From Steroidobacteraceae bacterium (GTDB taxonomy: Bacteria; Pseudomonadota; Gammaproteobacteria; Steroidobacterales; Steroidobacteraceae), in contig DATAUO010000093.1 in NCBI GenBank assembly GCA_036268215.1, positions 245 to 64,244 of the forward strand: a DNA stretch of 64,000 bases, written 5' to 3'. Of this stretch, positions 14,489-52,296 are shown one piece after another. The translations under genes were made by a program, and so were the position numbers. How positions within the stretch are numbered: position 1 is the first letter of the stretch; each line of letters starts with the position of its first letter. The notes under the pieces are model-generated. The model saw only the letters and a program-made list of their open reading frames with translations. It did not search any database and was not told where the DNA came from.

Positions 14489-15166
14489 TCACCGCGCCCG
14501 TGTCTTACGGCGACCTCGTCCAACTTGCCGCTGCGGGGCGCCGGTGGCGGCGGCATGCATGAGGAGCTCGCCGGACAGCCGCGCGACCCGCGCGAGGGAT
14601 CTTCCCGAGCGCGGCGCCGTGGCATAGATCGGATTCGTGCCCTCGGAGATGGTGCCGAGCAGCTGGGCGATGTCGTGGGCCCGCTGCCGGGACAGCTCGG
14701 GCCAGGCGACTCGCAGCCGGGCCGCGGCCAATCGATGCAGCTCATCGTAAAAGCGGTCCATGGCCCGGGCGATCGCCGGGTCGTGAAGCGCCATGACCCA
14801 GAGCTCGCGGAACACGCTGCTGCTATCGCGCGAGACCGAGTCGCCCATGTACCAGCGCAGGAGCTCGGCGAATCCGGTCTTGCCGCCGGCATTGTGCAGG
14901 TACGCCTGAGCATTGATCTTGTAGTGCTCGAGCAACGCCAGGATCACCGCGTGGACCAGGCTGCGCTTGGTGGGAAAATAATAGACGACATTGCCCACCG
15001 CCACGCGCGCCTCGCGCGCGACCGCACGCATGGACAGGCGCGCGTATCCCGCGCTCGCCAGCACGTGCCGGGCCGCGCGGAGTATCTCGGAGCGCGTGTC
15101 GCCTGATTCGGCAGTGCGGCGTCGCCGCGTCGGGGTCGGGGCGCTCCGTCCGCTGCGTTCCTTCAT
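14489..15166 (-). CDS. TetR/AcrR family transcriptional regulator
   Basis: The HTH is 'ILRAARHVLASAGYARLSMRAVAREARVAVGNVVYYFPTKRSLV'. The gene is divergent from the amidase / TonB-dependent receptor 2 pair. Confidence 0.9.
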   Translation of the reverse strand: MKERSGRSAPTPTRRRRTAESGDTRSEILRAARHVLASAGYARLSMRAVAREARVAVGNVVYYFPTKRSLVHAVILALLEHYKINAQAYLHNAGGKTGFAELLRWYMGDSVSRDSSSVFRELWVMALHDPAIARAMDRFYDELHRLAAARLRVAWPELSRQRAHDIAQLLGTISEGTNPIYATAPRSGRSLARVARLSGELLMHAAATGAPQRQVGRGRRKTRAR

Positions 15167-15474: not shown

Positions 15475-17004
15475 ATGTCGGATCGAAGCGCTTTGACCCG
15501 CCGGGGGTTCGTGACCGGCGCGTCCGCGTTCATGGCCGGTGCGTGCGCTTGGGCGGGATCCCCGGCTGCCGCTGCCGCCGGCTCCGACGTCCCGGCGACG
15601 GACCTGTCCGCGGCGGACGCGGTGGACCGCATGCGCCGCGGCGAGCTCAGCTCGGAGGCCTATGCGAAGGCGCTGCTCGACCGCTGTGCCTCCTTGAAAG
15701 CGCTGAACGCCTTCATCACCCTGGAGCCCGACCGCGTGCTGAGCGATGCCCGCGCGGCCGATCGCTTGCGCGCGAAGGGGGCGAAGCTCGGCCCGCTGCA
15801 CGGGCTGCCGATTCCGGTCAAGGACAGCCTCAACACCCGCGACTACCCGACCACGGTGGGGACGCCGGCGCTGCGCAAGTTCCGGCCCGCCGAGGATGCG
15901 CCGCTGGTCGCGCAGCTGAAGAGCGCGGGCGCCCTCGTGCTCGGCAAGACCAACCTGCACGAGCTGGCGTACGGCTGGACCAGCAACAACCATGCCTTCG
16001 GCGCCGTCCACAATCCTTACGATCCGAGCCGGATTCCCGGGGGAAGCAGCGGCGGCACCGCGGCCGCGGTAGCGGCGCACATGGCCCCGCTCGGCGTCGC
16101 GGCCGATACCGAGGGCTCGATCCGCGTCCCGGCGGCGCTCTGCGGACTGGTGGGGTTTCGGCCGACGACCGGGCGCTATTCGCAGGAGGGCCTCGCTCCG
16201 ATCACGCCGGTGTTCGATGAGGCGGGCCCGCACGCGCGCCGCATGGGCGACATCGAATTGTTCGACTCGGTGGTGACGGGCGAGCATGGCCCGCTCGCCG
16301 TGCCGAAGCTCGAGACGATCCGGCTCGCGGTCTATCGCGGCTACTATTACCAGGGGCTGGATCCCGAGGTGGCGCGGGTCACCGACGCCGCGCTGGCCAG
16401 GCTCAAGAGCGCGGGCGTGACGATCGTCGAGACCGAGATCCCGGAGCTGGCCGACCTCATCGCCCGCATCACGGGTCCCGTCCAGTACCACGACACCGAG
16501 CCGACGCTGCGGGCGTACCTTGCCAAGTACCGAGCCGGGGTCACCTTCGAGCAACTCGTGGCCTCGGCCAGCGACGACATCCGCGCCACCTTCGCCCAAT
16601 ACGTGCTGCCGGGCGGGCGCGACGTGGTGAGCGATGCCGCTTACAGGACAGCGGTCGATCAGGATCTGCCCCATCTGCGCGCCGTGCTGCGCGAGACCTT
16701 TGCGCGCACCCGGACGAGCGCGCTCGTGCTCCCGACCACCATGACGACGGCGCCCAGGATCGGCGATGAGGGCCTGCTGTCCTTCGGCGGCCGCAAGGTC
16801 GCCTTCGACGTCGCGATGTCGCGCAACATCGACCCGGGCAGCACGGCCGGGCTGCCGGGACTGGTCATGCCGGTCGGGCTCGCCGCGAACGGCCTGCCCG
16901 TGTCGCTCGAATTCGATGGCCCCGCGGGATCCGACCGAGCGCTGCTCGGGCTCGGCACCGCGCTCGAGCGTGTGCTGGGGACAGAGCCCCCGCCGCGCAT
17001 CTGA
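15475..17004 (+). CDS. Amidase-signature family amidase with Tat signal (periplasmic)
   Basis: The start is at ATG 15475 with GGAAGGA upstream. The twin-arginine leader is 'SALTRRGFVTGASAFMAGACAWA'. The amidase signature is 'GGSSGGTAAAVAAHMAPLGVAADTEGSIRVPAALCGLVGFRPT'. Confidence 0.9.
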   Translation: MSDRSALTRRGFVTGASAFMAGACAWAGSPAAAAAGSDVPATDLSAADAVDRMRRGELSSEAYAKALLDRCASLKALNAFITLEPDRVLSDARAADRLRAKGAKLGPLHGLPIPVKDSLNTRDYPTTVGTPALRKFRPAEDAPLVAQLKSAGALVLGKTNLHELAYGWTSNNHAFGAVHNPYDPSRIPGGSSGGTAAAVAAHMAPLGVAADTEGSIRVPAALCGLVGFRPTTGRYSQEGLAPITPVFDEAGPHARRMGDIELFDSVVTGEHGPLAVPKLETIRLAVYRGYYYQGLDPEVARVTDAALARLKSAGVTIVETEIPELADLIARITGPVQYHDTEPTLRAYLAKYRAGVTFEQLVASASDDIRATFAQYVLPGGRDVVSDAAYRTAVDQDLPHLRAVLRETFARTRTSALVLPTTMTTAPRIGDEGLLSFGGRKVAFDVAMSRNIDPGSTAGLPGLVMPVGLAANGLPVSLEFDGPAGSDRALLGLGTALERVLGTEPPPRI

Positions 17005-17031: not shown

Positions 17032-19692
17032 ATGTCATCTAGGCTGACGTACGCAATCGCCTGCATCTTGGCCGGGACGTCGGGTTCCACGGCCGCGGCC
17101 GCCGCGGGCGCCGACACGAGCTCTAGCGCCAGCGCCGCCTCGGAGTCCCTGGGGGAGGTCGTGGTGACCGCGCAGCGGCGCTCGGAGAACATCCAGGACG
17201 TCCCCATCTCGATCCAAGCATTCACCGAGCAGGCGCTGCAGCAGCTCAACATCTCGACGTTCGACGACTACATCAAGTTCCTCCCCAACGTCACGAGCGC
17301 GAGCAACGGGCCCGGGCAGAACGAAGTATTCATGCGAGGCCTGTCCGCCGGATCGCAGGCGAGCCAGGCGAGCGCAATCACGGCGGTGCTGCCGAATGTC
17401 GCGATCTATCTCGACAACCAGTCGGGTCAGATGCCGAATCGCAATCTGGACATCTACGCAGCGGACCTCAACCGTATCGAGGTGCTGGAGGGACCGCAGG
17501 GCACTCTGTTCGGCGCCGGTGCCCAGGCGGGCGTGATCCGCTACATCACCAACGAGCCGAAGCTCGACAAGACCGAGGGCTACGTCAAGGCCGGCTATGG
17601 CGTCACCGCCGGCGGCGATCCCAACACGGACATGCAGGCGGTGATCAACCTGCCGCTGATCGCGGAGCACATGGCGGTGCGCGCCGTCGTTTACAGCGAT
17701 CGCCGCGGCGGCTACATCAACAACGTGCCGGACACCTTCGCGCGCAAGAACACCGACATCGGCATCCACTACGCCAACTATCCGGCGGTGAACGGCCAGT
17801 GTCCGGATGGGCAGCCGAACAACGGGTATTGCGTGCCGCCGGGCAGCCCCACCTTGAGCAACAATGCCCTGGTCGGCAGGGCGATCAACCCGGTCACCTA
17901 TCAGGGAACCCGGATCGAGCTGTTGTACAAGTTCAACGACGACTGGGACATCCTGCTCAGCCAGTCGTATCAGAACATGGAAGCCGACGGCGTGTTCTTC
18001 CAGCAACCCTTGTCCTCGAGCGGGTCGCCGCTGAAGCCCCTCGAGGTCACCCTGTTCAACCCGGCCTACGACCAGGACAAGTTCGAGAGCACCGCCTGGA
18101 CCGTCGACGGCAAGATCGGTCCCTTGAAGATGGTCTATACCGGCGGCTACCTCGACCGGCAGGTCAATCAAACCTCCGACTACACCAACTACGTTCGCGG
18201 CGTGTACGCGGACTACTACCAGTGCTACGGGCCGGGCTCGGGCGGAGATGCCCATCTACCGTCCAAGTGCTTCTCGGCCAACGCCTTCTGGCGGGAGCAG
18301 GAGCGCAACCTGCACCAGCAGCACGAGTTCCGCCTGAGCACGCCGGACGACTGGCGCATCCGCGGCATCGCCGGCGCGTACTGGGAGGACAACAAGCTCT
18401 ATGACGTGACGAGCTGGCTCTACAAGGGCTTGCCGGCCTGCACCGCCACGGCCAACGTCGGCTGCATCACGGACGTCGGCACCTTGCCGGGAACGACGGT
18501 GCAGTACCCGGGAATCCAGACCGACGACACCACGTTCTTCCAGGATGCGCACCGCGAGACCAAGCAGACCGCGTTCTTCCTCTCCGGCGACTTCGACATC
18601 ATCCCGAAGGTGCTGACCTTCACGGCCGGCACGCGCTACTTCAAGTTCGACAACAAGTTCGTGGGCAGCGTGTCGGAGAGCTTCGGCTGCTTCCAGGGAG
18701 GCGCGCCGCCCTGCAACAATTATCCGGGGTTTGCGTTCAATCTCGACGCGCAGGGCCTGCGCTCCTCGGAGTCCGGGGTCAAGAGCCGCGCCAACCTGAC
18801 TTGGCATGTCATGCCGGACGTGATGGTCTACTACACGTTCTCGCAGGGCTTCCGGCCGGGCGGATTCAACGGCAACAGCACCACCTCGCACATTCCGGGT
18901 CCGGACGGCGCCGAGCAGTACTACATTCCGCGGACGTACTCCTCGGACAAGCTCACCAACAACGAGATCGGCTGGAAGACCGAGTTCTTCGATCACCACC
19001 TGCAGTGGAACGGCGCGATCTACCGCGAGAACTGGGACAACGTGCAGATCGAGTTCTTCGATCCCGGTCTGATCGGCAACCTGTACGTCAACACCAACGG
19101 GCAGAATTTCCTCATCAAGGGAATCGAGACCTCGTTGATCGGCCGGGTGACCGACGGTCTCACCCTGCAGGGCTCCGCGTCTTGGAACCAGAGCCGGCAG
19201 ACGAACTCACCTTCGCTGATCGACAACAACCCGCTGAGCGTGAACTACGGCAAGCCGATCACCGAGAACTGCTTCACCACGCCTTGCCAGCCCGTGGGCA
19301 ATCCCTTCGGTCCCGTCGGCTCTCCGAGCGCGGACGCGCCGCCGATCCAGTTCTCCCTGCGGGGGCGCTACGACTGGACCATCGGCAGCTACAGCCCGTT
19401 CCTGCAGGCATCGGCGCATCACACCGGGCATTCGTTCACGCAGGCCGGCTCGAACCCGATGTTCGTCATCGGCAACCAGATCAACACCTCGCGCGGGCGG
19501 TTCGAGGTGCCGGCGTACTCGACGTTCGATGCCTCGGGCGGCGTGACCAAGGATGCCTGGACGGTGATGATCTACGGCCAGAATCTCGCGAACTCGAATG
19601 CGAGCACGTTCATCAGCACGGATCAGTTCATCATTGCGCAGACGCCCTTGCGGCCGCGGGTGATCGGGGCGTCGTTCAGCTACTCGTTCTAG
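17032..19692 (+). CDS. TonB-dependent receptor (paralogue 2)
   Basis: 886 aa, roughly 70-75% identical by eye to the 3867-6500 receptor. For example, 'LQQLNISTFDDYIKFLPNVTSA.NGPGQ.EVFMRGLSAGSQASQ' is shared. It ends in an aromatic residue (..ASFSYSF). Confidence 0.95.
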   Translation: MSSRLTYAIACILAGTSGSTAAAAAGADTSSSASAASESLGEVVVTAQRRSENIQDVPISIQAFTEQALQQLNISTFDDYIKFLPNVTSASNGPGQNEVFMRGLSAGSQASQASAITAVLPNVAIYLDNQSGQMPNRNLDIYAADLNRIEVLEGPQGTLFGAGAQAGVIRYITNEPKLDKTEGYVKAGYGVTAGGDPNTDMQAVINLPLIAEHMAVRAVVYSDRRGGYINNVPDTFARKNTDIGIHYANYPAVNGQCPDGQPNNGYCVPPGSPTLSNNALVGRAINPVTYQGTRIELLYKFNDDWDILLSQSYQNMEADGVFFQQPLSSSGSPLKPLEVTLFNPAYDQDKFESTAWTVDGKIGPLKMVYTGGYLDRQVNQTSDYTNYVRGVYADYYQCYGPGSGGDAHLPSKCFSANAFWREQERNLHQQHEFRLSTPDDWRIRGIAGAYWEDNKLYDVTSWLYKGLPACTATANVGCITDVGTLPGTTVQYPGIQTDDTTFFQDAHRETKQTAFFLSGDFDIIPKVLTFTAGTRYFKFDNKFVGSVSESFGCFQGGAPPCNNYPGFAFNLDAQGLRSSESGVKSRANLTWHVMPDVMVYYTFSQGFRPGGFNGNSTTSHIPGPDGAEQYYIPRTYSSDKLTNNEIGWKTEFFDHHLQWNGAIYRENWDNVQIEFFDPGLIGNLYVNTNGQNFLIKGIETSLIGRVTDGLTLQGSASWNQSRQTNSPSLIDNNPLSVNYGKPITENCFTTPCQPVGNPFGPVGSPSADAPPIQFSLRGRYDWTIGSYSPFLQASAHHTGHSFTQAGSNPMFVIGNQINTSRGRFEVPAYSTFDASGGVTKDAWTVMIYGQNLANSNASTFISTDQFIIAQTPLRPRVIGASFSYSF

Positions 19693-20261: not shown

Positions 20262-20882
20262 TCATGCTGGCCGATCGTCGTTGCGCGAGCCGGCGGCAGT
20301 CTCGCGGGCGTCGAGGAATTCCTCCAGGTCGCGGCGCGAGCCGGCCTCGTCGAACCGCCCCATGTCGAGCGCCCAGCCGGTGGCGGGCACGGCGGGGAGT
20401 CCGCGACGGGCGAGCTCGGCCTCGAGCTCCTCGATCCAAATGCCACGCTGGGGCACGATCTGCCAGTCGTCGTTTGGGCGATTGGGCCGGCCGCCCCAGT
20501 CGGGCTGCGTGGAGGTGAAGCGCACGCCGGTGGAGGGGCTGCCGTCGAGCCCGATGAGGATCACCTCGTCGCCGCGGCGAAGATGCTGCTCGATCAGCGG
20601 CGCGATCGCCTGCGCCAGGCGGCGGCAATGCGTGCGATACGCGGGCGTGTCGTACTGCTCGTACACGGCCCACCAGCGACGCGCACCGGCAAAGGCGAGC
20701 TCGGGACAGGGGAGTTGCAGCAGCTGATAGCCGCGCTGGCGCAGCGCCTCGACCACGGGGCTCACCACACCGCGATAACGCGCGCCCTCGCAGACCTTGG
20801 CGTTCTGGTTCAGCAGGCAATTCGCGACCAGCGCCACCTTTCGAGGCGCGGCGCTCGCATCGTCAGGCAGCCCAGGTGGCAC
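20262..20882 (-). CDS. DUF523/TudS-related protein (putative Fe-S desulfidase-like)
   Basis: GTG 20880-20882 is preceded by GGAGG (6-nt spacer). 'VALVANCLLNQNAKVCEG....YQLLQLPCPELAFAG' matches the Cys pattern (C..N.N / C / CPE) I associate with DUF523/TudS-related proteins. Confidence 0.7.
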   Translation of the reverse strand: MPPGLPDDASAAPRKVALVANCLLNQNAKVCEGARYRGVVSPVVEALRQRGYQLLQLPCPELAFAGARRWWAVYEQYDTPAYRTHCRRLAQAIAPLIEQHLRRGDEVILIGLDGSPSTGVRFTSTQPDWGGRPNRPNDDWQIVPQRGIWIEELEAELARRGLPAVPATGWALDMGRFDEAGSRRDLEEFLDARETAAGSRNDDRPA

Positions 20883-21071
20883 TATCGACCTCCACAACCG
20901 CTTCAGCCGTCGCGTACAGGTTGCCGTCCGCGCTGCCGAAGTACACGGTCGCTCCGTCGACCGCGGGCGAGGACAGCACGGCGCCGACGCTCATCATCTT
21001 CCACACGCCGAGGATGAGATCGTCGTAGAAGAAATCGGTGAATGTCGCCTGGTAGTTCCCGGCGCGATGCC

Positions 21072-22907
21072 TCAGTGGCCTTGCGCCTTCTTCTTCGGCG
21101 CGGATGACGCGGCCGCCGGCTGGGTCGGCTCGTTCAGGGGAAAGAAATTCCATGCGGGATTGTCCTTCAGGAACTTCAGGGTGATCAAGCCCGCGGCGCC
21201 GGGCGGCTGCGGCGGCGCATTGGGGTCGCTCTGCAGCGGCATGACCTTGCGGTAGGCCGTCCACGCGGCGGTCGGCGCGGGGCCGAACTCGCGCGAGGAG
21301 TCCTGGGCGTGGCGCACGTCCAGCCAGCGCGTGCCGGTGATGATGTCGGTCGCCAGAAGGCGGAACGTGTCGTCGACCGCGGTCTGTGCGCGCACCGCCT
21401 TCAAGAGCGACTGCGCCTCGAGCTCTTCGACGCCGGAGCTGCCGCCGTACCCCTCGGGCGGCACGGGGGTGATCTGGGCCTGGATGTGCTGCCAGGTCTC
21501 GTGATTGCCGAAGGTGCCCGCGAAGAACAGGTTGCCGCCCTGCTCGCGCAGGATCTTCTGCGTGCCCTCGCCGGTGAAGAACTCGCTGCCGAAGCGCTCG
21601 GCGCGCAGCATGATGGCGATGTCCATGTTGGCGAGGGCGATGGTGAAGGCCTCGAGGTCGTTCGACAGGGGATACGGATCCCAGTTCGCATCGGAAAAGA
21701 TGAAGCCGTGCTTGCCGTTCGAGTTCTTGCCGCCCTTCACGTAGTACTTCTGCATCTCGGGCGTCGCCAGGTCCCAGGCGTCCTGGGGCGACAGCCCGGC
21801 GCGGATCGCGGGGTTGTGGTCGGACGAGTTGAGCTGCGTCACCACGTCGTCGCGCAGCATCGCCCACATCTGCCACGCCGAGGCCGTGCGGATCGAGGAA
21901 GCCCGCAGGGATTCGGGGTCCTGGATGATGCGGCCCTTGTCGTCGCCGAAGAGGTAGCTGCCCTTGATCATCTCCTTGACGCGATTGGCATCCCAGTTCA
22001 GCCACTTGAACGGCCGGTCGGTCTGGACCAGGTAGCTCAACGGGGTGACCGAGCTGTTCATGGCGTTCAAGTCGATGGCATAGATGAGGTCGGCCCAGGC
22101 GAGCGCCTGCTTGCCGTCGGCGACCGCGAAGGCGGCGCGCGCCGTCGCGTAGGCATCGCTCGAGGTGAGCGCATTGTCGTCGGCGGCGAAGGGCTGCAGC
22201 GGCGCCAGTCCGGCGGCCTTGAGCGCCTCGGCGGCCGGCATGCGCGTTCCGTTGTAGTACGCCTCGCCGACGCCGACCATGGTGGCGCCGATGTTGTTGA
22301 GCACGGACAGATCGCCTTCGCCGACCGTGCCCCGCGACTGCATCACCGGCGTGACGCGCTTGTTGAGGAGATCGAGCAGCATCTGCGCGAGAGCCGGACT
22401 CGGGGCGTTGTAAGTCATGGCGTTGGCGCGCGCGACCATCACGGCGCGCACCAGACCCTCGTCGTTGATCTCGGGACCTTCCATGGGGTTGGCGGCGCCG
22501 CGCTTGAAGGAGGCCAGCATCTTTTTCTCGAGCAGCGCCTTGTTCCCGGGAGACAGCGGGTCGCCCTCGAACTGCTTCACCTCGCGTCCTGCGCCGGCCC
22601 CGCGCGTGAACCAGTAGACCGACACGCCTTCCGCCGGGGCCTCGAGGAGGAGCCCGTAGTTGTCGACCTCACGCTGCCTGGCCTCTGGGCTCAGCTCGAC
22701 CTTGGCGCCGCCGCGCGCGACCTCGACGAGCTGGTCGATGGTGAAATCGCGGCCGGTCAGCGTCACGGTCCTGCCGCTCAGCGCCGGCTCGATGGCGTGG
22801 TAGCCGAGCGTATCTTGAGCGCGCGCGCCGAGCGCGAACAGAACGGCGCCTCCAATCGCGAGGGTGATTGCGCCGGCGCGGCAGCGATGTCCCGAATGAG
22901 CGTTCAT
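21072..22907 (-). CDS. Secreted aromatic-amino-acid-lyase-fold (HAL/PAL family) protein lacking the MIO triad, paralogue 1
   Basis: ATG 22905-22907 has AGAGGAA upstream. The leader is 'AITLAIGGAVLFALGARA'. Family motifs are 'QLVEVARGGAKVEL', 'VRAVMVARANAM', 'RVTPVMQSRGTVGEGDLSVL', 'IIQDPESLRAS' and 'SSDHNP'. GEGD replaces G-A-S-G-D. Confidence 0.85.
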   Translation of the reverse strand: MNAHSGHRCRAGAITLAIGGAVLFALGARAQDTLGYHAIEPALSGRTVTLTGRDFTIDQLVEVARGGAKVELSPEARQREVDNYGLLLEAPAEGVSVYWFTRGAGAGREVKQFEGDPLSPGNKALLEKKMLASFKRGAANPMEGPEINDEGLVRAVMVARANAMTYNAPSPALAQMLLDLLNKRVTPVMQSRGTVGEGDLSVLNNIGATMVGVGEAYYNGTRMPAAEALKAAGLAPLQPFAADDNALTSSDAYATARAAFAVADGKQALAWADLIYAIDLNAMNSSVTPLSYLVQTDRPFKWLNWDANRVKEMIKGSYLFGDDKGRIIQDPESLRASSIRTASAWQMWAMLRDDVVTQLNSSDHNPAIRAGLSPQDAWDLATPEMQKYYVKGGKNSNGKHGFIFSDANWDPYPLSNDLEAFTIALANMDIAIMLRAERFGSEFFTGEGTQKILREQGGNLFFAGTFGNHETWQHIQAQITPVPPEGYGGSSGVEELEAQSLLKAVRAQTAVDDTFRLLATDIITGTRWLDVRHAQDSSREFGPAPTAAWTAYRKVMPLQSDPNAPPQPPGAAGLITLKFLKDNPAWNFFPLNEPTQPAAASSAPKKKAQGH

Positions 22908-22930
22908 ACCTGTTCCTCTGAGTAACCTTT

Positions 22931-24787
22931 TCACGGGCTGGTGGTGGCGGCGTCGATGTCCTTGGCGAGCGGTGCATAGAATTCAGCCGCGGGATGCTCG
23001 AGCATGAAGCCGAGCACGATCTCTCCGGCGGGGCGGAGCGGCCGCTCCTCGGGCTTTTGCCGGAACGGCACTGCGCGGCGGAATTCGGTCCAGACGGCGG
23101 TGGGTGCGGCGCCGAAAGCCCGGTCCGGGACCTGCGCATGGCGCACGTCGAGCCAGAACGTCGCGGTCAGGAGATCCTCGCCGAGCAGCCGCACGGTGTC
23201 GTCGACGATCTGCCGCGCGCGCACGGTCTTCAGCACCGTCTCCGCCTGCAGCTCCTCGACGGTGTTGCTGATGGCGTTGCCCTCGACGCTCTGCAGGTGC
23301 GCGAGCCCCTGGATGTCCTGCCAGATCGCGGTCGGGTTGTAGCCGTCGACATCCGATTGAACGCTGTCCGCGAGCTCGGCCGCGCCAATCACGTCCTTCG
23401 GCGAGATGACGGTGAAGAACGTGCTCGAGAAGCGATAGATCCGCTGCACCACCGCGACGTCCATGTTGGCGAGCGCGTTGGTGAGGGCTTCGATCTCGTT
23501 GGCCATGGGGTACGGGTCCCAGTTGGCGTTCGACAGGATGAAGCCGTGCTGGCCGTGGCTCTCCGGGCCGCCTTTCACGTAGTACTTGCGCAGCTGCGGC
23601 GTGGCGAGCTCCCAGGAATCCCCGGGCCCGGCGCCGACCTCCACCCCGGGATTGTGATCGGAGGAGTTGAGCTGGATGCGGAGCGTGTCGCGCAGCGTCG
23701 CCCATGCCTTCCACGCCGAGCCTTGACGGCTGTACGAGGCGCGCTGGCTCTCGGGGTCCTGGATGATGCGCTTGGGATCGTCGTCGAACAGGTAGCTGCC
23801 CTTGACCATGTCGAGAACCCGGGCGGCGACGCGGTTCGAGTACTCGAGCGGCCGGCTCGATTGCACCGGCGTCGACAGCGGCGTCACGCTGCTGTTCAGG
23901 GCCTCGAGGTCGAGCGAGAGCGCAAGGTCGGCCCAATTCAGGGCGAGCTTGGCATCGTGGACGAGCAGGGCGGCCTGCCCTGCCGAGAACGCATTGGTGC
24001 TGGTGAGCGCGGAAGGATAGATGGCATCGGCCGGCCGCAGCGGCTTCAAGCCGGCGGCGGCGAGCGCTTGCGCGGCGCTCATGCGCTTTCCCTGGTAGTA
24101 CGCCTCGCCGGCACCGCCCATGGTGCCGAGGACGTTGCCCATCGCGGCGAGATCCGCCTCGCCGAGCGAGCCGCGCGACTGCACCACCGGCGTCACGCGC
24201 CGGTTGAGCAGATCGATCAGGACCTGCGACAGCCCCGGGCTCGCCGCCTCGGAGATCATGGTGTTCGCACGCACCGCGAGCAGTGCGCGCACGATCTCCT
24301 CGTCCGCCACTTCGGGACCGATGCCTTGTCTCGGTCCGCTCAGGAACGCCTTGGCCGCCTTGGCGGAGAGCAACGCTTCGTTCTCGGGAGAGAGCGGATC
24401 GCCGGAGAACAGCGGGATCTCGCGGCCGGCGCCGGGCGCGCGATTGAAGCCGTAGATGGCCATGCCTTCGGCGGCGCCTTCCAGGAGCAGCCCGTACGCG
24501 TCCGCTTGCCGGCGGCGCGCGTCGTCGCTCAAGGCGACCTTGGCGCCGTAGCGCGCGACCGCGACCACCTGGTCAGGGGTCAGGTCGCGGCCGGTGAGCA
24601 CGACGGTCTCGGCGCTGCGCGAGGCGACGATGGGGTGGTAGCCGCGCGGCTCGGACGCGGCGCCGGCGCTCGAGTCGGACGCGGCGGCCGATTTGACCGC
24701 AGCGCCGGCGGGCGACCCGAGGGCCAAGCCCGCGATCAGGACGCCGGCCAGGATTGCGAGCGCGCGACCCCGGCACCCGCGCCGCAT
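22931..24787 (-). CDS. Secreted aromatic-amino-acid-lyase-fold protein lacking the MIO triad, paralogue 2
   Basis: ATG 24785-24787. The leader is 'RALAILAGVLIAGLALGSPAGA'. Family motifs are 'QVVAVARYGAKVAL', 'VRALLAVRANTM', 'RVTPVVQSRGSLGEADLAAM', 'IIQDPESQRAS' and 'SSDHNP'. Confidence 0.85.
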   Translation of the reverse strand: MRRGCRGRALAILAGVLIAGLALGSPAGAAVKSAAASDSSAGAASEPRGYHPIVASRSAETVVLTGRDLTPDQVVAVARYGAKVALSDDARRRQADAYGLLLEGAAEGMAIYGFNRAPGAGREIPLFSGDPLSPENEALLSAKAAKAFLSGPRQGIGPEVADEEIVRALLAVRANTMISEAASPGLSQVLIDLLNRRVTPVVQSRGSLGEADLAAMGNVLGTMGGAGEAYYQGKRMSAAQALAAAGLKPLRPADAIYPSALTSTNAFSAGQAALLVHDAKLALNWADLALSLDLEALNSSVTPLSTPVQSSRPLEYSNRVAARVLDMVKGSYLFDDDPKRIIQDPESQRASYSRQGSAWKAWATLRDTLRIQLNSSDHNPGVEVGAGPGDSWELATPQLRKYYVKGGPESHGQHGFILSNANWDPYPMANEIEALTNALANMDVAVVQRIYRFSSTFFTVISPKDVIGAAELADSVQSDVDGYNPTAIWQDIQGLAHLQSVEGNAISNTVEELQAETVLKTVRARQIVDDTVRLLGEDLLTATFWLDVRHAQVPDRAFGAAPTAVWTEFRRAVPFRQKPEERPLRPAGEIVLGFMLEHPAAEFYAPLAKDIDAATTSP

Positions 24788-24788
24788 G

Positions 24789-26588
24789 TCAGGGCACTCC
24801 GGCCGGCGGCGCCGGATCCCCTTGCGGGTAGAAGGTTTCCGCGTGCGTCCCCCTCAGGAACTCGGCCGCCACCATGGGCCGAATCTGCGCCGGGCCGTCG
24901 GCCGAGGGCATGAAGGGCACGACCTTGCGGAACGCGGCGAGCGCCGCGGTCGGCCCGTCGCCGAAGGCGCGCGCGGCATCCTGCTTCTTGCGCACGTCCA
25001 TCCAGAACGTGGCGTTCAGCATGTCATGACCCAGAAGATCGAACGTGGTGCCGACCGCCTGACGCGCGCGATAGGCCTTGATGCGGGTCTGAGCCTGCAG
25101 ATCCTCGACGGTGAGGTCGATGGCGGCGCCCGAGGGGGCGACCGGGTTCGTGAGGCTCTGCATCTCCTGCTGCAGATCGACCGGAGTGTATCCGCCGCCG
25201 CCGGCGAGATAGAGCATGAATCCGCTTCCGGGCGGCAGATTCAGGACCTTGACCGCGTCCGTCTGGGTGAAGAACGGGCTGGTGAAGCGATCGATGCGCA
25301 GCGACACCGCGACGTCCATGTTGGCGAGGGCGATGACGAAGTTCTCGAGCTTGTTCGCCATCGGGAACGGATCCCAATTGGCGTTGGAGACGATGTAGCC
25401 GTGCTTGCCGTTGCTCTCCTTACCGCCCTTGACGTAGTACTTCATCATCTGGGGCGAGGCGAGGTCCCAGCCGTCCTGCGGCGAGAGATCCGTGCGCACG
25501 GCCGGGTTGTGGTCCGAAGAATTCATCTGCGTCACGACGGCGTCGCGCAGCGCACCCCACTCCTGCCACGCGGAGCCCTCGCGGATGGACGAGGCGCGCA
25601 GCGACTCGGGGTCCTGGATGATCCGGTGCGGGTCGTCGCCGAAGAGGTAGCTGCCCTTCAAGAGCTCGCGCACCCGCGCCGCGTCCCAGTTGAGCCACTG
25701 GAACGGCCGCTCGCGCTGCACCAGCAGGGTCAACGGAGTGATGCTGGAATTCATGCCGTCCAGGTCCATGGCGTAGATCAGGTCCGCCCAGTCGAGCGCG
25801 CGCCGGCCGTCGGCCACGGCCAGCCCGGCGATGCCGGTGGCATAGGCATCGCTCGAGGTGAGGGCATTGGTGTCGGCCGCGAACGGCTGGATGGGCTTCA
25901 ACCCCGCCTTGGCCAGGGCGTCGGACGCCCTCATGCGCGTGCCCTCGAAATACGCATCGCCGGCTCCGACCATGGTCGCGCCGACGTTGCTGAGCTCGGC
26001 GAGATCGCCTTCGCCGAGCGTGCCGCGGGATAGCACCACCGGCGTGACGCGACGGTTGAGGAGGTTGGTGAGCATCTCGGCGAGCTGGGGGCTCGGGGCG
26101 TTCCAGGTCATGGCATTGGCCCGCACCGCCATCATGGCGCGCACGATCTCCTCGTCGGAGACCTCGGGACCGTAGCCGAAGACGGCGCCGAGCTTGAACT
26201 CCATGAGCTGGGATTTCTCGAGGTACTCCTTGTTCTTCGGCGAGAGCGGGTCGCCCGAGAACAGCACCGTCTCGCGCTGGTCGCCGGCACCGCGGTTGAA
26301 CCAGTACACCGCGATGCCCTCGGCCGACGCCTCGAGCAGCAGGCCGTAGTTGTCGGCCTCGCGCTGCCTGGCCTCGGGGCTCAGCTGCACCTTCGCGCCG
26401 TACCGCGCGATGTCGACCAGCTGCTCGACGGTGAGATCCTTGCCGGTCAGCGTGATCACCTTGTCCGACATCGTCGCCTGGATGGGCGTGTACCCGGAGC
26501 CGGCCAGCGCGGAAGCGCCCGCGCAAAGACATCCCATCAGAATCCCGAGACGCCCAGCCGTCCGCCGTCCGATCGCCATGCCATTCAT
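24789..26588 (-). CDS. Secreted aromatic-amino-acid-lyase-fold protein lacking the MIO triad, paralogue 3
   Basis: ORF 24789-26657 was trimmed to ATG 26586-26588, with GGGGAG 6 nt upstream. The leader is 'GRLGILMGCLCAGASALA'. Family motifs are 'QLVDIARYGAKVQL', 'RVTPVVLSRGTLGEGDLAEL', 'IIQDPESLRAS' and 'SSDHNP'. The stop lies 1 nt from the start of paralogue 2. Confidence 0.85.
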   Translation of the reverse strand: MNGMAIGRRTAGRLGILMGCLCAGASALAGSGYTPIQATMSDKVITLTGKDLTVEQLVDIARYGAKVQLSPEARQREADNYGLLLEASAEGIAVYWFNRGAGDQRETVLFSGDPLSPKNKEYLEKSQLMEFKLGAVFGYGPEVSDEEIVRAMMAVRANAMTWNAPSPQLAEMLTNLLNRRVTPVVLSRGTLGEGDLAELSNVGATMVGAGDAYFEGTRMRASDALAKAGLKPIQPFAADTNALTSSDAYATGIAGLAVADGRRALDWADLIYAMDLDGMNSSITPLTLLVQRERPFQWLNWDAARVRELLKGSYLFGDDPHRIIQDPESLRASSIREGSAWQEWGALRDAVVTQMNSSDHNPAVRTDLSPQDGWDLASPQMMKYYVKGGKESNGKHGYIVSNANWDPFPMANKLENFVIALANMDVAVSLRIDRFTSPFFTQTDAVKVLNLPPGSGFMLYLAGGGGYTPVDLQQEMQSLTNPVAPSGAAIDLTVEDLQAQTRIKAYRARQAVGTTFDLLGHDMLNATFWMDVRKKQDAARAFGDGPTAALAAFRKVVPFMPSADGPAQIRPMVAAEFLRGTHAETFYPQGDPAPPAGVP

Positions 26589-26645
26589 TGTTGTCTCCCC
26601 AGTGTTGCCGCGGGAGGGTCCTTCCCCCGAAAGATCCGTGCCATC

Positions 26646-26674
26646 GGTATGCAACATTTTTAACTGGTATGCAA
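26646..26674 (-). promoter_or_regulatory. Direct repeat TTGCATACC x2 (20-bp register) in an AT-rich island upstream of the lyase-like operon
   Basis: On the minus strand the sequence reads TTTGCATACCagttaaaaatgTTGCATACCgaTGGCAC. It lies about 60-85 nt upstream of the 26588 start codon. This is the only AT-rich stretch in the 206-bp gap. Confidence 0.35.
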
Positions 26675-26794: not shown

Positions 26795-28711
26795 TCACGT
26801 GCCGGCGCCGCCCGGATAGGAATCGATCACCGGCCCGAGCGCGCCTTTCAACGGGCCGAGCCAGGGCTCGTAGTGGCGCCATTGCTCCAGGCCCTCGCGA
26901 AAGATCGGCCGGCGCACCTGCCCGGAGCTCGCGCTGCGCACGGCGCGAGGATTCTGGTAGAAGCGCAGGCACGACTCCTCGAAAGGCAGCCCGCAGTAAT
27001 CGAGCAGCGCGCGGACTTCGCTCTCGGTGTCCTCCACCATCCGCTCGTAGATGACGCGATGAACCCGGCCGGGAGCGACCCGGTCGAAGTGCGCCATGAG
27101 CTCGACGTAGTCGCGGTAGTAACGGCCGATGTCCTCGAGGCCGTAGCTGAAGTGCTGGCCCAGCGCGAAATGCTGCTTGAAGCCGGAAAAGCAGCACGCC
27201 AGCGGATGGCGGCGCGCATCGACGATCTTGGCGCTGGGAAGCGCGAGCAGGATCAGGCCGAGATGCTGGAAGTTGTTCGGCATCTTGTCGATGAAGAACG
27301 GCGCCGCGCGCTTGCGGTGGATGCGCGTGCGCTCGAGGTATTCCTCGCCGAGGCGCCGCCACTCGGCGCCGGTCAAGGAGGCGAGCGCGCCCGGGTAATT
27401 CGTGCCCTCGCTCTCGTCGGACGCGGCCGCGACCCGGCGCGCCATCGCGATGATGTCCGGGATCTCGATGGTGCCCTCGACCTGCGAGTGGCTGGCCAGG
27501 ATCTGCTCGAGCAGCGTCGAGCCGGACCGCGGCAGGCCGACGATGAAGATCGGATCCGGCGCCGGACATCCCGCCTTCGACCGCGCGCGGATGAAATCCG
27601 CGCTGAAGAGCTGGTGCGAGCGGCCGAGTCTCGCGTGGTGCTCGTCCGCATCGTAGCGGATCTCGGCCCGGCGCAACCGGTTGCCCTCGGCGTAATGCTC
27701 GAAGGACTGCGCGAACCGCCCCTGATCCTCGAGCGCCTTGCCGAGCGCGAAATGAAAATGAAAGCGCTCGTGCGCCTCGAGCGTGTCGTTCCGAAGCGCC
27801 GCGAGCATGGCACCGGTCTCGTCCGCGGCGAAGCGGAAGGTCTTGAGATTGGCGAGGCTCCAGTAGCTCTCGCCGAGGCGCGGCTCGAGCTCGATGCTCC
27901 TGCGGTAGGCGGCTACCGCGTCCTGGTCGCGGCCGGAGGTCTTCAGCGCATGTCCGAAGCTCATCCAGATCCGCGCCTGGTTCGGATAGGCGTCCAGCAC
28001 CTCGCGATAGAGCTCGAGCGACGCGGCATATTCCCCGACGGCGCCGAGGATCGCCGCCTTGATGTTGCGCGCGCTGATCCGCCGCGGCTCGGCCGACAGG
28101 CAGCGGTCGATCTCGGCAAGCGCTTCGGCGTGCTTGTTCTCACGGTGCAGGACGAGGGCGAGATTCTGGCGCGCGGCAACGAAGTTCGGCGCGAGCCCGA
28201 CGCAGTGGCGCAGCAGCGCCTCGGCATCGCCGTAGCGGCGCAGCCGCGCGGCGAGCTCGGCCAGCATGCGCAACGCCGCCACGTCGTTGGGGTTCTCGCG
28301 CACCTTGGCCCGGAGCAAGGGCTCCGCCTCCGCGAGGCGGTTCTGGTAGAGCGCGGCGCCCGCGGCCCGCATGCGCGGATCATGGATCGAGTGCTTGACG
28401 TGCTCGGCATAGGCGCGGTCGGCGTCGGGCACGTTGCCCACGTCCGTGTACAGATCGCCGAGCGCGAGCCACGCCGGACCGAGATCCGGCTTAGCCGCGA
28501 CCGCGCGGCGCAGCGTCTCGATGGCCTCGCCGTTGCGTCCGAGCGCGCGCCGGGCGAGGGCGAGCAGGTACAGCGCCGCGGGCTGATCCGGCAGCTGCTC
28601 GAGGATGGCCTGGGCCTGCTCGGCCGCGAGCTCAGGCTGCGCGGCGAGGAGGCGCATGCCGTGCGCGAGCGCGGCATCGAGTGTACCCAGGGGATCTGCG
28701 GCTGGAGTCAT
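26795..28711 (-). CDS. TPR repeat-containing sulfotransferase family protein
   Basis: The N-terminal about 330 aa consist of TPR repeats. The C-terminal sulfotransferase domain has the PAPS 5'-phosphosulfate loop 'IFIVGLPRSGSTLLEQIL' and 'IVDARRHPLACCFS'. The start is ATG 28711 or GTG 28747. Confidence 0.85.
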   Translation of the reverse strand: MTPAADPLGTLDAALAHGMRLLAAQPELAAEQAQAILEQLPDQPAALYLLALARRALGRNGEAIETLRRAVAAKPDLGPAWLALGDLYTDVGNVPDADRAYAEHVKHSIHDPRMRAAGAALYQNRLAEAEPLLRAKVRENPNDVAALRMLAELAARLRRYGDAEALLRHCVGLAPNFVAARQNLALVLHRENKHAEALAEIDRCLSAEPRRISARNIKAAILGAVGEYAASLELYREVLDAYPNQARIWMSFGHALKTSGRDQDAVAAYRRSIELEPRLGESYWSLANLKTFRFAADETGAMLAALRNDTLEAHERFHFHFALGKALEDQGRFAQSFEHYAEGNRLRRAEIRYDADEHHARLGRSHQLFSADFIRARSKAGCPAPDPIFIVGLPRSGSTLLEQILASHSQVEGTIEIPDIIAMARRVAAASDESEGTNYPGALASLTGAEWRRLGEEYLERTRIHRKRAAPFFIDKMPNNFQHLGLILLALPSAKIVDARRHPLACCFSGFKQHFALGQHFSYGLEDIGRYYRDYVELMAHFDRVAPGRVHRVIYERMVEDTESEVRALLDYCGLPFEESCLRFYQNPRAVRSASSGQVRRPIFREGLEQWRHYEPWLGPLKGALGPVIDSYPGGAGT

Positions 28712-28777
28712 ACGGATCGGCAACCGGAGTCGTGCGCCGCCCGGCACCGGCGGGAAGTCGAGGCCGGGGCGTCGAGG

Positions 28778-30571
28778 TCAGTTTGCCACAACCGGCAGCA
28801 CGACGTGCGAGGGGTGACCTGCCTCGTGATAGATGCGGATCGTCGCCGCGCGGGCGTTCGCGGAACGGGTCTCGGACTCCCCGCTCTGCAGGTTGCGCGA
28901 GAAATAGGCAAAGAACTGCCCGGAGACCTGAACCCGGATGCGGTGGCCTTGCTTGAACAGGTTGCTGGTCACGGGGCCGGTGATGTCGATCCGGTAGATC
29001 TTTCCCGGCTCGAGCAACTGCCGGCCCTTGTCGATGTCACGGTAGCTCGCGCGCTCGAGCTCGCTGCCCGCGCTCATCTGGTTCCAGACCGCGCCGTCCG
29101 GCGCCACGTCGTAAAGGCGGACCCAGAGGTCGAGGTCCCGGCAATCGCAGCTCACGAAGATGTGCGAGTCGATGGCCCCCGTCACTTCGGTGTCCCTGGC
29201 AAGCGGCGCGGTCTCGAAGGTGAGCAGGTCCCGGCGCGCGCCGAGCTCGCGGTAATCGTGCGCGCCGAGCTCCTCGGCGTGGCGGTCCGTCACCGGGTGC
29301 AGGGGATCGGACACGAACGCGCTGGACCCGCCCGCCTCGGGGGCCGATTCGCTCAACGAACCGGGGCGGCCCGGCGCGGCATCGCCGAGATAGAAGCGCG
29401 CGGCCCTCGCCGCGGAAGGCGGCCATGACGCGCCCTCGCGCCAGGCGTCGGCGCCCATGACGTAGTAGCGCACCGGGGGCTTTCGGTCGACGCCGTTGTC
29501 GATGCCGCGCAGATAATGATCCATCCAATCGAGCACGGTCTTGTCGTAGTCGATCGCCGCGGCCGCGGGGAACGTGCGCTCGCCGGCCTTGGGGGTCTCT
29601 GTGGACTTCACCCCGTGAATCCACGGACCGACCAGGAGGGCCGTCCTGCGCGGCTGGCCGGAGCGCGCTTTCAAGAGACCTTCGAAGTTCGTGACGGCGC
29701 CTTCGGGGCCGTAATGCTCGTCGTACCATCCGGAAAGATTGAGCACCGCGGCGCGGGTGCGGCGGTACTTGCCGCGCAGATCCGACCAATTCCACCACGC
29801 ATCGTCCGGGGGGTGGCGCAGCCACTCGTAGTAGTAGGGCGCGACATCGCGAAGCTCGGGCAAGGCGTCGAGGGGCAGCACGCCCTCCATCTCGGACGCG
29901 CTGCGCTGCCAGGCCGCGACGGCGTCGTCATAGGTGCGCGGCCCGGGCAGATTCAGCTTCACCCGCACGTCCGGCGCGATGTTGTCCCAGATCCACTCGA
30001 TCCACGACAGGTCGAACGCGCCGCTTGCATAGAAGAACGTGCGATGCGAGGAGAAGGTCATGGCGGGGACCATGGCCTCGAGGTGCGGCGGGCTTTCCAC
30101 CGCCGCAAGCCATTGCACCGCGCCGGGATACGACAATCCGAAGGTGCCGACCTTGCCGTTCGACCAGGGCTGGCGCGCCGCCCACTCGATGGTGTCGTAG
30201 CCGTCGCGGCCTTCGTTCACATAGGGAACGAAAACCCCGGCGGAGCCGTAGCGCCCGCGCACGTCCTGCACCACGACGGCATAGCCCCGGGCGCGCGCGG
30301 CTTCGAAGGTGGTGTATTCCTGAAGCGCGTTCTTCTCGCCATAGGGCGTGCGGTACACGAGCACCGGGAAGGGGCCGTTGCCGGCCGGCAGCAAGAGGTC
30401 CGCGCGCAGAGTGAGGCTGTCGCGCATGGGGATCGCGGCCTGCATCTCGGCGCCCGCAGCGGCGGTGGCGGTGGCGGCGTTGGCGTTGGCGTTGGCGTCG
30501 GCTTCGGCTTCGGCGGCCCAAGCCGCCGGCGTCGCGACGAATAAACCAATCAGCAGCACGCACCGCCTCAT
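28778..30571 (-). CDS. CocE/NonD family hydrolase (S15 X-Pro dipeptidyl-peptidase-like), secreted
   Basis: ORF 28778-30727 was trimmed to ATG 30569-30571, with GGAG upstream. The leader is 'MRRCVLLIGLFVATPAAWA'. Family motifs are 'PVLVYRTPYG', 'VVVQDVRGRYGSAG' and the nucleophile motif 'GTFGLSYPGAVQW'. Confidence 0.9.
   Translation of the reverse strand: MRRCVLLIGLFVATPAAWAAEAEADANANANAATATAAAGAEMQAAIPMRDSLTLRADLLLPAGNGPFPVLVYRTPYGEKNALQEYTTFEAARARGYAVVVQDVRGRYGSAGVFVPYVNEGRDGYDTIEWAARQPWSNGKVGTFGLSYPGAVQWLAAVESPPHLEAMVPAMTFSSHRTFFYASGAFDLSWIEWIWDNIAPDVRVKLNLPGPRTYDDAVAAWQRSASEMEGVLPLDALPELRDVAPYYYEWLRHPPDDAWWNWSDLRGKYRRTRAAVLNLSGWYDEHYGPEGAVTNFEGLLKARSGQPRRTALLVGPWIHGVKSTETPKAGERTFPAAAAIDYDKTVLDWMDHYLRGIDNGVDRKPPVRYYVMGADAWREGASWPPSAARAARFYLGDAAPGRPGSLSESAPEAGGSSAFVSDPLHPVTDRHAEELGAHDYRELGARRDLLTFETAPLARDTEVTGAIDSHIFVSCDCRDLDLWVRLYDVAPDGAVWNQMSAGSELERASYRDIDKGRQLLEPGKIYRIDITGPVTSNLFKQGHRIRVQVSGQFFAYFSRNLQSGESETRSANARAATIRIYHEAGHPSHVVLPVVAN
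30461..30516. repeat. Compound hexanucleotide microsatellite (GGCGGT)2(GGCGTT)3(GGCGTC)(GGCTTC)2
   Basis: Read directly from the sequence. It encodes AAEAEADANANANAATATAAA just after the signal peptide of the CocE/NonD hydrolase. Confidence 0.85.
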
Positions 30572-30739
30572 AGGAGCTCCTTTCCGCAATTCAGATACTA
30601 AGCGGCGCGCGCGGGCGGCGCCACCGCCACGCGGCGCTGGTGGATCGCGGGCGTCTATCGCAGAATCCCCACCTCCATGAGACCGCCCCGATCCGCTCCG
30701 TGACGCCCAACCCGGCTCGCGCCACATTGCGTTGAACGC

Positions 30740-49070: not shown

Positions 49071-49087
49071 GCCAGGCGCCGTCCACG

Positions 49088-52245: not shown

Positions 52246-52296
52246 TACGCCCGATTCTAGATGGAACCGCCTAACCTTGCGAATGAGACAGATTCC

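Follow-up and report, generated by a model that had tools for sequence, protein, structure and literature searches.

What reaction could be catalyzed by proteins that have the fold of histidine and phenylalanine ammonia-lyases (HAL and PAL), begin with putative export leaders and lack the Ala-Ser-Gly triad from which such enzymes make their electrophilic cofactor, 4-methylideneimidazole-5-one (MIO)? This question is raised by three tandem genes, designated here lyase paralogues A, B and C, in a stretch of 64,000 nucleotides (nt) from a Steroidobacteraceae bacterium (assembly GCA_036268215.1, contig DATAUO010000093.1, positions 245 to 64,244), which is referred to below as the window. The genes had been pointed out in an earlier note that was made from the DNA sequence without database searches. 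Results from this study suggest that A, B and C are probably three periplasmic, MIO-independent lyases of the ergothionase-type, or trimethylammonia-lyase, branch of this fold.

Residues at the MIO position and in the active site

The open reading frames (ORFs) underlying A, B and C are co-oriented and back-to-back on the minus strand, where they span 21072-26657. Start codons were chosen by the best support from Shine-Dalgarno-like sequences. Gene A (24789-26588, minus) starts at the ATG at 26588, which has a GGGGAG on its 5' side, and encodes a precursor of 599 amino acid residues, whose mature part of ~568 residues begins with GYTPIQ at 26495. Gene B (22931-24787, minus) starts at the ATG at 24787, 1 nt past the stop of A, and encodes 618 residues, of which the mature domain begins with GYHPIV at 24643, past a leader and an Ala/Ser-rich linker. 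Gene C (21072-22907, minus) encodes 611 residues from the ATG at 22907, which is located 23 nt past the stop of B and has a GAGGA on its 5' side; a GTG at 22934 could serve as the start instead. Inspection of the ORFs and starts hence bears out the tandem arrangement of minus-strand paralogues, with spacings of 1 and 23 nt, that the earlier note had described. PF00221 spans all three proteins end to end, covering profile positions 1-466, with 311 bits for A (E 1.7e-92), 277 bits for B (E 2.8e-82) and 275 bits for C (E 1.8e-81) vs a gathering cut-off of 27.3. The identities were 58% between A and C, 53-55% between A and B and 50-53% between B and C. B is therefore the most diverged, as had been noted by eye, and the estimate of two thirds for A and C was too high. 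The sequence motifs quoted in the earlier note were also located in A, B and C in the order given there.

In a distribution scan with one genome for each species, 76 related loci were found, which are labelled L001 and so on. The register at the MIO position was taken from a profile of 31 non-redundant family members aligned to solved structures, and conservation was counted over the alignment columns of 91 full-length family members. In the profile alignment, G-T-V-G-E-G-D-L falls on S-S-I-G-E-G-D-I of the ergothionase of Treponema denticola (6s7j) and on G-S-V-G-[MIO]-D-L of histidine ammonia-lyase (7tqr). The segment reads G-T-L-G-E-G-D-L in A (26001-26024, minus), G-S-L-G-E-A-D-L in B (24149-24172, minus) and G-T-V-G-E-G-D-L in C (22308-22331, minus); G-E-A-D is fixed within the B clade. 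Because of this register, the segment is seen to be one residue shorter than that of the MIO-dependent enzymes and to have no Ser, with the two residues Glu-Gly (Glu-Ala in B) in place of Ala-Ser-Gly, which confirms what had been proposed for this position. The triad Ala-Ser-Gly was found in none of the 91 family members, and the Glu of GE[GAS]D is invariant (91/91). As read from the alignment, with no Ala-Ser-Gly in register in the three paralogues or in the family, A, B and C cannot form MIO, in line with the earlier suggestion.

The other active-site segments are well conserved. The loop V-Y-W-F-N-R-G-A-G of A (26283-26309, minus; equivalent loops: B, 24431-24457; C, 22593-22619; both minus) contains the catalytic-base Tyr, which corresponds to Tyr53 of HAL and Tyr54 of ergothionase and is conserved in 98% of the members, and the ergothionase-type Arg of N-R-G, which is conserved in 100%. 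The carboxylate-binding Gln and Arg are found in I-I-Q-D-P-E-S-L-R-A-S of A (25590-25622, minus; 23735-23767 in B and 21897-21929 in C, minus) and the carboxylate-binding Asn in N-S-S-D-H-N-P of A (25503-25523, minus; 23648-23668 in B and 21810-21830 in C, minus), and each of the three is conserved in 100% of the members. The Glu at the position of ergothionase E412 is conserved in 90%. A, B and C each hold the whole set of the loop Tyr, the Glu of the G-E segment, the Gln/Arg/Asn triad and the equivalent of E412. In addition, the same segments hold two family-specific residues, the Glu of QDPES (98%), which takes the position of HAL Tyr280 and of a Leu of ergothionase, and the His of SSDHNP (95%). 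The position of HAL Asn195 (Pseudomonas putida numbering) is occupied by Ser (ALTSS). Thus, the replacement of the Tyr of the QDxYS motif by Glu and the loss of the Asn, both of which had been claimed earlier, were also found in the alignment.

Two regions that contact the side chain of the substrate in known enzymes are altered. The segment G-G-G-Y-T-P of A (25182-25199, minus; 23333-23350 in B and 21504-21521 in C, minus) is aligned with Lys384 of ergothionase and is the most diverged segment among the paralogues. Lys384 is aligned with Tyr in A and B, with Phe in C and with Tyr, Phe or Ile across the family, in a part of the alignment that is moderately reliable. The segment of the imidazole-binding His contains a 9-residue insertion and no conserved His; the sole conserved His of the family is that of SSDHNP. 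A second insertion of ~28 residues holds an invariant KYYVKGG.

Ergothionase 6s7j is the best solved relative of A (phmmer E 4.8e-40) and also the top match of B, and the family profile matched it with 215 bits (E 1e-62). Foldseek of the AlphaFold2 model of A (mean predicted local distance difference test score, or pLDDT, 70; predicted template modeling score 0.76) matched 6s7j with an E of 1.7e-19 and template modeling scores (TM) of 0.67/0.75, and the matches to ergothionase, HAL, tyrosine aminomutase (TAM), tyrosine ammonia-lyase (TAL) and PAL all had a probability of 1.00 and TM of 0.65-0.78. The model was built from a shallow alignment and was used for fold assignment only, not for the geometry of the pocket. 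Together with the PF00221 search, the Foldseek results bear out the ammonia-lyase fold that had been assigned to A, B and C.

Similar to the ergothionase of T. denticola (6s7j/6s7q), the family has the same fold, no MIO, an identical G-E-G-D, the Tyr base in V-Y-x-x-N-R-G, the Arg of N-R-G, Ser at the position of HAL Asn195, the Gln/Arg/Asn triad and an equivalent of Glu412. Different from the reconstructed sequence of 6s7j, which has no leader, the family here has one. Moreover, Lys384 of ergothionase is Tyr/Phe here, its His84 has no equivalent, its QDPLS and TTDDNP are QDPES and SSDHNP, and the family adds the insertions of 9 and ~28 residues and a longer C-terminus. Ergothionase is typically cytoplasmic (bioRxiv 10.64898/2026.04.22.720169).

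MIO-less lyases with leaders have been characterized in Shewanella. Swoo_3913 is a periplasmic histidine betaine trimethylammonia-lyase that requires Mg2+ and deaminated none of the proteinogenic amino acids tested (bioRxiv 10.1101/2025.08.13.670108). SO_3057 acts as an ergothionase and SO_3299 cleaves N(pi)-methyl histidine betaine; both are periplasmic and MIO-less and have leaders, and the characterized MIO-less lyases strictly need the trimethylammonium group (bioRxiv 10.64898/2026.04.22.720169). In these enzymes and in HAL, the imidazole is bound by a His and a Glu (His83 of HAL; His117 and Glu467 of Swoo_3913), and Lys384, an essential residue of ergothionase that holds the thiolate, is Asn or Gln in the sulfur-free specificities (bioRxiv 10.1101/2025.08.13.670108; 10.64898/2026.04.22.720169). 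The roles of the ergothionase residues are cited here as they are given in these two Shewanella preprints. The earlier note knew of no characterized exported, MIO-less family; given the MIO-independent ergothionase 6s7j and the periplasmic Shewanella lyases, this view is not upheld. Literature searches found no paper on the exact subfamily of A, B and C, and its lack of an assigned function, as assumed earlier, therefore stands; searches for hypaphorine lyases or other betaine lyases yielded nothing relevant either.

The Shewanella lyases and the family described here, which are compared by published residues and gene context rather than by direct sequence alignment, both belong to PF00221, lack MIO and carry a leader at the N-terminus (recognized here by a heuristic). 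The Shewanella enzymes act in the periplasm and release trimethylamine and a 2-enoate. In them, the His that binds the imidazole is kept and residue 384 is Lys, Asn or Gln, whereas the family here has no such His and has Tyr/Phe at 384. Their genes are in operons with flavocytochrome c/urocanate reductase that serve anaerobic respiration, whereas the context found here is catabolic, comprising a TonB-dependent receptor, a sulfotransferase with tetratricopeptide repeats, trimethylamine dehydrogenase with its electron transfer flavoprotein and genes of choline/betaine catabolism, and the relatives of the host are soil Steroidobacteraceae and Alphaproteobacteria. Neither the window nor the recurrent neighbor families of the 76 loci yielded a gene for flavocytochrome c or urocanate reductase, and a respiratory coupling of the Shewanella type was dismissed on this ground.

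The MIO-dependent HutH, PAL, TAL and TAM resemble A, B and C in having the fold of PF00221, a Tyr as the base and Gln/Arg/Asn for binding the carboxylate. However, A, B and C have no Ala-Ser-Gly, their equivalents of Asn195 and Tyr280 are replaced and they are predicted to be exported. Their scores against the hutH equivalog were 175, 142 and 128 bits (A, B and C, respectively) vs a cut-off of 539, and those against all other NCBIfam equivalogs for HAL, PAL, TAL and aminomutases were also far under the cut-offs. Canonical HAL, PAL, TAL or aminomutase function was ruled out by these scores and by the missing triad in register. Close homologs (~77% identical) are abundant in soil metagenomes, where they are assigned to Steroidobacteraceae and carry the annotation "aromatic amino acid ammonia-lyase" or "histidine ammonia-lyase"; these names are almost certainly wrong for the family.

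The next relatives recovered by an exhaustive search are MIO-less proteins of 27-37% identity, which mostly keep the His (as xSH or xAH), QDPLS[FY]R and SSDDNP, and mostly also I-Q-K, which contains the Lys384 equivalent. Comparison with 35 MIO-less representatives showed that A, B and C carry the signature of the MIO-less clade, namely G-E-[GA]-D, the Arg of N-R-G and Ser at the position of HAL Asn195. The residues that mark ergothionase, histidine betaine lyase and the SO_3299 type were not found, as there is no His and residue 384 is Tyr/Phe. Judged by these signatures, A, B and C belong to a distinct subfamily of ~570 residues within the MIO-less lyases. As the signature of the MIO-less clade is shared, the subfamily is predicted to belong mechanistically with the trimethylammonia-lyases. 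One distant MIO-less relative of 33% identity, P0152 (1206 residues), has a leader, the segment GSVGEADI and an extra C-terminal region of ~600 residues with the dinucleotide-binding-like motif VVIVGGGPHG; it could be a natural fusion of a lyase with an oxidoreductase.

Predicted export and the proposed reaction

In all three paralogues, the N-terminal leader combines basic residues in the n-region with 18 or more uncharged residues in a row, and AxA-type sites are located right before the conserved GY.PI of the mature N-terminus. The leader of A (MNGMAIGRRTAGRLGILMGCLCAGASALAGS; 26496-26588, minus) contains three positive charges and 18 consecutive uncharged residues, and its AxA sites precede the conserved start of the mature protein. 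The leader and linker of B (MRRGCRGRALAILAGVLIAGLALGSPAGA / AVKSAAASDSSAGAASEPR; 24644-24787, minus) and the leader of C (MNAHSGHRCRAGAITLAIGGAVLFALGARAQDTL; 22806-22907, minus) were assigned by a heuristic of hydrophobicity and cleavage sites. A hydrophobic leader was found in 91 of the 91 homologs, so that the Sec-type leaders proposed earlier for the three proteins are borne out by the heuristic. No twin-arginine motif was found in the leaders of these homologs, and export of the lyases via the twin-arginine translocation (Tat) pathway was dismissed. Because the leader is conserved family-wide, export is very likely. The hydrophobic region of A-type leaders also contains a Cys, as in ILMGC of the window (26496-26588) and VLAGC of L001 (9986-10080) as well as in L007 and L024. 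Manual reading showed that charged residues just upstream of this near-lipobox break the standard lipobox rule; even so, the A-type enzyme may be anchored as a lipoprotein.

For the reaction, we propose the following sequence of steps. The precursors would be exported by the Sec pathway, and, after removal of the leaders, the enzymes would assemble in the periplasm. Proteins with the HAL/PAL fold are normally tetrameric, and each of their active sites is shared between subunits. The substrate would be an alpha-N-trimethylated (betaine-type) carboxylic acid that crosses the outer membrane via the co-localized TonB-dependent receptor. Its carboxylate would be held by the conserved Gln/Arg/Asn triad and its beta-proton would be removed by the conserved loop Tyr. 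The quaternary ammonium, placed at the MIO site beside the invariant Glu/Asp of G-E-[GA]-D, would then leave as trimethylamine without any electrophilic cofactor. The products would be a 2-enoic acid, to be taken up for catabolism, and trimethylamine, which would be oxidized by the adjacent trimethylamine dehydrogenase and electron transfer flavoprotein (ETF) in those sister genomes that have this system.

Besides the match to ergothionase, the conserved catalytic residues and the leaders, the chemistry of the known enzymes counts in favor of this proposal, as all characterized MIO-less members cleave trimethylammonium groups rather than deaminating amino acids. The proposed elimination of trimethylamine from an alpha-trimethylammonio carboxylate by A, B and C is supported indirectly by dehydrogenase/ETF genes near their orthologs in 8 genomes. 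The trimethylamine dehydrogenase gene (1407 bits over the full length vs PDB 1djn) is found near the lyase genes of the A-type clade and its sisters, at distances of 115-575 nt in L001, L002, L004, L005 and L020, of ~390 nt in L008 (by tblastn coordinates) and within 4-6 kb in L013 and L017. It is accompanied by genes for ETF alpha/beta, an Fe-S oxidoreductase and a transporter, the last of which passes the trimethylamine-N-oxide permease model with 793 bits vs a cut-off of 690. ETF is the natural electron acceptor of trimethylamine dehydrogenase.

The substrates of A, B and C are probably not derived from histidine, because the imidazole-binding His and the thiolate-binding Lys are absent. 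Candidates would be aromatic or aliphatic amino-acid betaines of plants and fungi. The assay for ammonia-lyase activity on His, Phe and Tyr that the earlier note suggested is expected to be negative, because Swoo_3913 deaminated no proteinogenic amino acid tested.

Several points weigh against a trimethylammonia-lyase function of A, B and C. The identity to ergothionase is just 25%, and the C-terminal half aligns with it weakly (11-28 bits). The model of A is only moderately confident, with pLDDT <50 around the QDPES region. The Glu of QDPES and the His of SSDHNP stand beside the leaving-group/carboxylate site in place of the Leu and Asp of ergothionase-like proteins, so the chemistry or the leaving group could differ. 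In addition, signal peptides were judged by a home-made heuristic rather than by SignalP. As for the gene context, no trimethylamine dehydrogenase or sarcosine oxidase gene was found near the lyases in the window or at L014, and the link to trimethylamine is therefore drawn from orthologs of 71-81% identity. The alphaproteobacterial single copies are located amid housekeeping genes, and the conserved cytoplasmic sulfotransferase with tetratricopeptide repeats (TPR) is not accounted for.

Triplication of the lyases and competing readings

The survey of the distribution and synteny of GE[GA]D-type homologs, which had been proposed in the earlier note, showed that most of the 76 loci have a single copy (~55/76), including those of cultured Mesorhizobium, Labrys, Inquilinus and Novosphingobium; cultured carriers of the family include Mesorhizobium sp. 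1M-11, Labrys sedimenti, Inquilinus ginsengisoli and Novosphingobium flavum. The triplet is limited to one Steroidobacteraceae lineage, in which A-B-C occur in the same order at six loci (L001, L002, L003, L004, L010 and L014), the nearest being L014 (90-93%). The orthologs of A are 77-95% identical. In a neighbor-joining tree rooted on ergothionase, A, B and C form separate orthologous clades among several. The dN/dS values were 0.08-0.14 for A, 0.13-0.19 for B and 0.13-0.14 for C, showing that all three are under purifying selection. In the same metagenome-assembled genome as L014, at least a fourth lyase paralogue is found on another contig (L034; DATAYZ010000014.1), together with genes for BetA-like, enolase-superfamily, receptor, sulfotransferase, PhnD-like, major facilitator superfamily (MFS) transporter and choline-sulfatase proteins. 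As this is the closest relative, more than three copies are probably also present in the genome from which the window comes.

Given the triplet, A, B and C might be subunits of one hetero-oligomeric periplasmic enzyme, a possibility that we regard as unlikely. The genes are tightly packed, their order is kept at the six loci, each paralogue has its own orthologous clade and proteins of the HAL/PAL fold normally form tetramers whose subunits share active sites, all of which would suit such an enzyme. However, the single copy at most loci suggests a homo-oligomer as the ancestral state and weakens the idea. Moreover, L005 and L007 have A only and L008 has A and C without B, and each of A, B and C holds a complete catalytic set. 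The fixed differences also gather in the substrate-specificity segment and are not spread over the interfaces. Of the clade-conserved columns, 23% differ between the A, B and C clades protein-wide, vs 7 of 7 in the segment aligned with Lys384; likewise, 5 of the 14 three-state columns are within 13 residues there. This pattern fits three specificities better than one obligate hetero-oligomer, and A, B and C are predicted to differ probably in their side-chain specificities.

It is similarly improbable that A, B and C are lyases of ergothioneine and/or histidine betaine (hercynine) that bind the imidazole in a remodelled pocket. The nearest characterized enzymes all use histidine-derived betaines, the family largely conserves the Glu at the E412 position, whose counterparts in HAL and ergothionase bind a nitrogen of the imidazole, and the preprints describe ergothioneine and hercynine as common in soil. 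The His that binds N(tau) of the imidazole (HAL His83 and Swoo_3913 His117), however, has no counterpart, and the 9-residue insertion is found instead. Furthermore, the Tyr, Tyr and Phe that A, B and C have at the position of Lys384 are not the Asn/Gln of the sulfur-free enzymes either, and genes of the urocanate/thiourocanate pathway were not seen nearby. With no equivalent of Lys384 or of the imidazole-binding His, an ergothionase or hercynine lyase in the strict sense was judged unlikely.

We also think it quite unlikely that the paralogues beta-eliminate a group other than trimethylamine or use a conjugate as their substrate. Candidates for the group released would be dimethylamine or monomethylamine, with acid catalysis by the Glu/His, or a sulfonium, and the conjugate could be a betaine ester, an amide, a lipid head group or a sulfated compound. 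The family-specific Glu and His that flank the leaving-group/carboxylate site, as compared with the Leu and Asp of ergothionase-like proteins, would be explained in this way, and so would the co-located exported amidase, exported CocE/S15 hydrolase and sulfotransferase as well as the choline-sulfatase in another clade. The neighboring dehydrogenase in at least 6 genomes is, however, a close full-length homolog of trimethylamine dehydrogenase specifically, and the characterized MIO-less lyases strictly need trimethylammonium (bioRxiv 10.64898/2026.04.22.720169). In a more elaborate scheme, which we hold to be rather unlikely, the Glu of QDPES and the His of SSDHNP would act together as acid and base, so that a leaving group that is different or worse could be eliminated without a cofactor, or so that a betaine conjugate, for example a betaine-lipid or peptide head group, could be attacked after its delivery by the receptor and its trimming by the amidase/esterase. 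In the triplet lineage, A, B and C would in addition form a hetero-tetramer with mixed active sites. Finally, the loss of the MIO triad and the low model confidence in part of the active-site region might indicate that A, B and C have kept the fold but no catalytic activity and are binding proteins or pseudo-enzymes. This is extremely improbable in view of the 98-100% conservation of the catalytic Tyr and the carboxylate triad over 91 sequences, the dN/dS of 0.08-0.19 and the fact that MIO loss is normal in an active, characterized enzyme class.

MIO-independent, often periplasmic trimethylammonia-lyases were already known. What distinguishes A, B and C from these is the pocket signature, the lineage-specific triplication and a catabolic, not respiratory, gene context. 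If A, B and C are indeed trimethylammonia-lyases, the widespread soil Steroidobacteraceae would hold up to four or more periplasmic, trimethylamine-releasing betaine lyases; single copies are found in Mesorhizobium, Labrys, Inquilinus, Novosphingobium and Caulobacteraceae. In that case, plant and fungal quaternary amines would have a new way into the carbon and nitrogen cycle, and trimethylamine would have a new biological source beyond the gut and anaerobic respiration. It would also mean that cofactor-free lyases of the HAL fold reach substrates beyond histidine derivatives. The fixed differences among the pockets of A, B and C would provide a natural experiment on specificity in this fold.

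Genes associated with the lyases

Several neighbors of the lyases recur. A family of TonB-dependent receptors was found at 39 of 77 lyase loci and a family of TPR-sulfotransferases at 34 of 77, and the usual core order is receptor, cytoplasmic TPR-sulfotransferase and lyase. Pairs of receptor and TPR-sulfotransferase genes are often repeated two to three times in tandem upstream of the lyase (L003, L012, L019, L027, L029, L035, L041, L047, L066 and others). A PDB search with the TPR-sulfotransferase returned only generic TPR matches and a weak match to the CurM sulfotransferase, and a literature search on the pairing of receptor and sulfotransferase found nothing relevant. Another large clade of lyases is found in islands of choline/betaine catabolism, which also counts in favor of the trimethylammonia-lyase reading; a choline-sulfatase gene is nearby (806 bits vs a cut-off of 433), as are genes for sarcosine-oxidase subunits, FolD, GbdR-, GbcA-, MttB- and BetA-like proteins, PhnD-like and desaturase-like proteins and a ProP-like MFS transporter.

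In the window, the order of the operon is CocE/S15 hydrolase, TPR-sulfotransferase, A, B and C. The gene directly upstream of A (26795-28747, minus) encodes TPR repeats and a sulfotransferase domain (PF13469) without a leader. It is preceded by a gene for an exported CocE/NonD (peptidase S15) hydrolase (28778-30727, minus), which was identified by Pfam and by the leader in its translation and is kept in L014. No promoter-like site was found in a scan around the operon, and terminator-like sites around it were no commoner than in shuffled sequence. A convergent unit consists of a BetI-type TetR regulator gene (14489-15166, minus), the divergent gene of a Tat-exported amidase (15475-17004, plus) and, directly downstream of the latter, a TonB-dependent receptor gene of the recurrent family (17032-19692, plus; Pfam Plug and barrel), which converges with the lyase operon. 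The amidase has the Tat motif LTRRGFV and resembles indoleacetamide hydrolase (NF005688, 525.8 bits vs a cut-off of 532). The pair of amidase and receptor recurs twice in L014 and once in L021, and the amidase might trim an amide conjugate ahead of the lyases.

An ORF at 20262-20897 (minus), 174 nt downstream of C, encodes a protein related to the [4Fe-4S] desulfidase TudS (NF045597, 123.5 bits vs a cut-off of 130). As a link to thio-compounds it was dropped, since it has no counterpart at the 76 related loci, including the closest relative, and it is probably a coincidental neighbor. A second receptor of the same family (3867-6500, plus) has its own BetI-type TetR regulator (3031-3687, minus). 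Further genes of the window are located at 44202-46388 (plus), 48551-51211 (plus), 51214-53373 (minus) and 54377-56506 (minus). They include a third TonB-dependent receptor, two GH36 (melibiase-like) proteins and, between the GH36 pair, an ORF of 719 residues, of which residues ~396-719 match LacI-type regulators and whose call is probably over-extended. The region is thus rich in outer-membrane uptake loci. In addition, the window encodes a protein of 691 residues (9422-11497, minus) in which a TIR domain at the N-terminus precedes TPR repeats, an architecture that resembles those of defence or signalling proteins.

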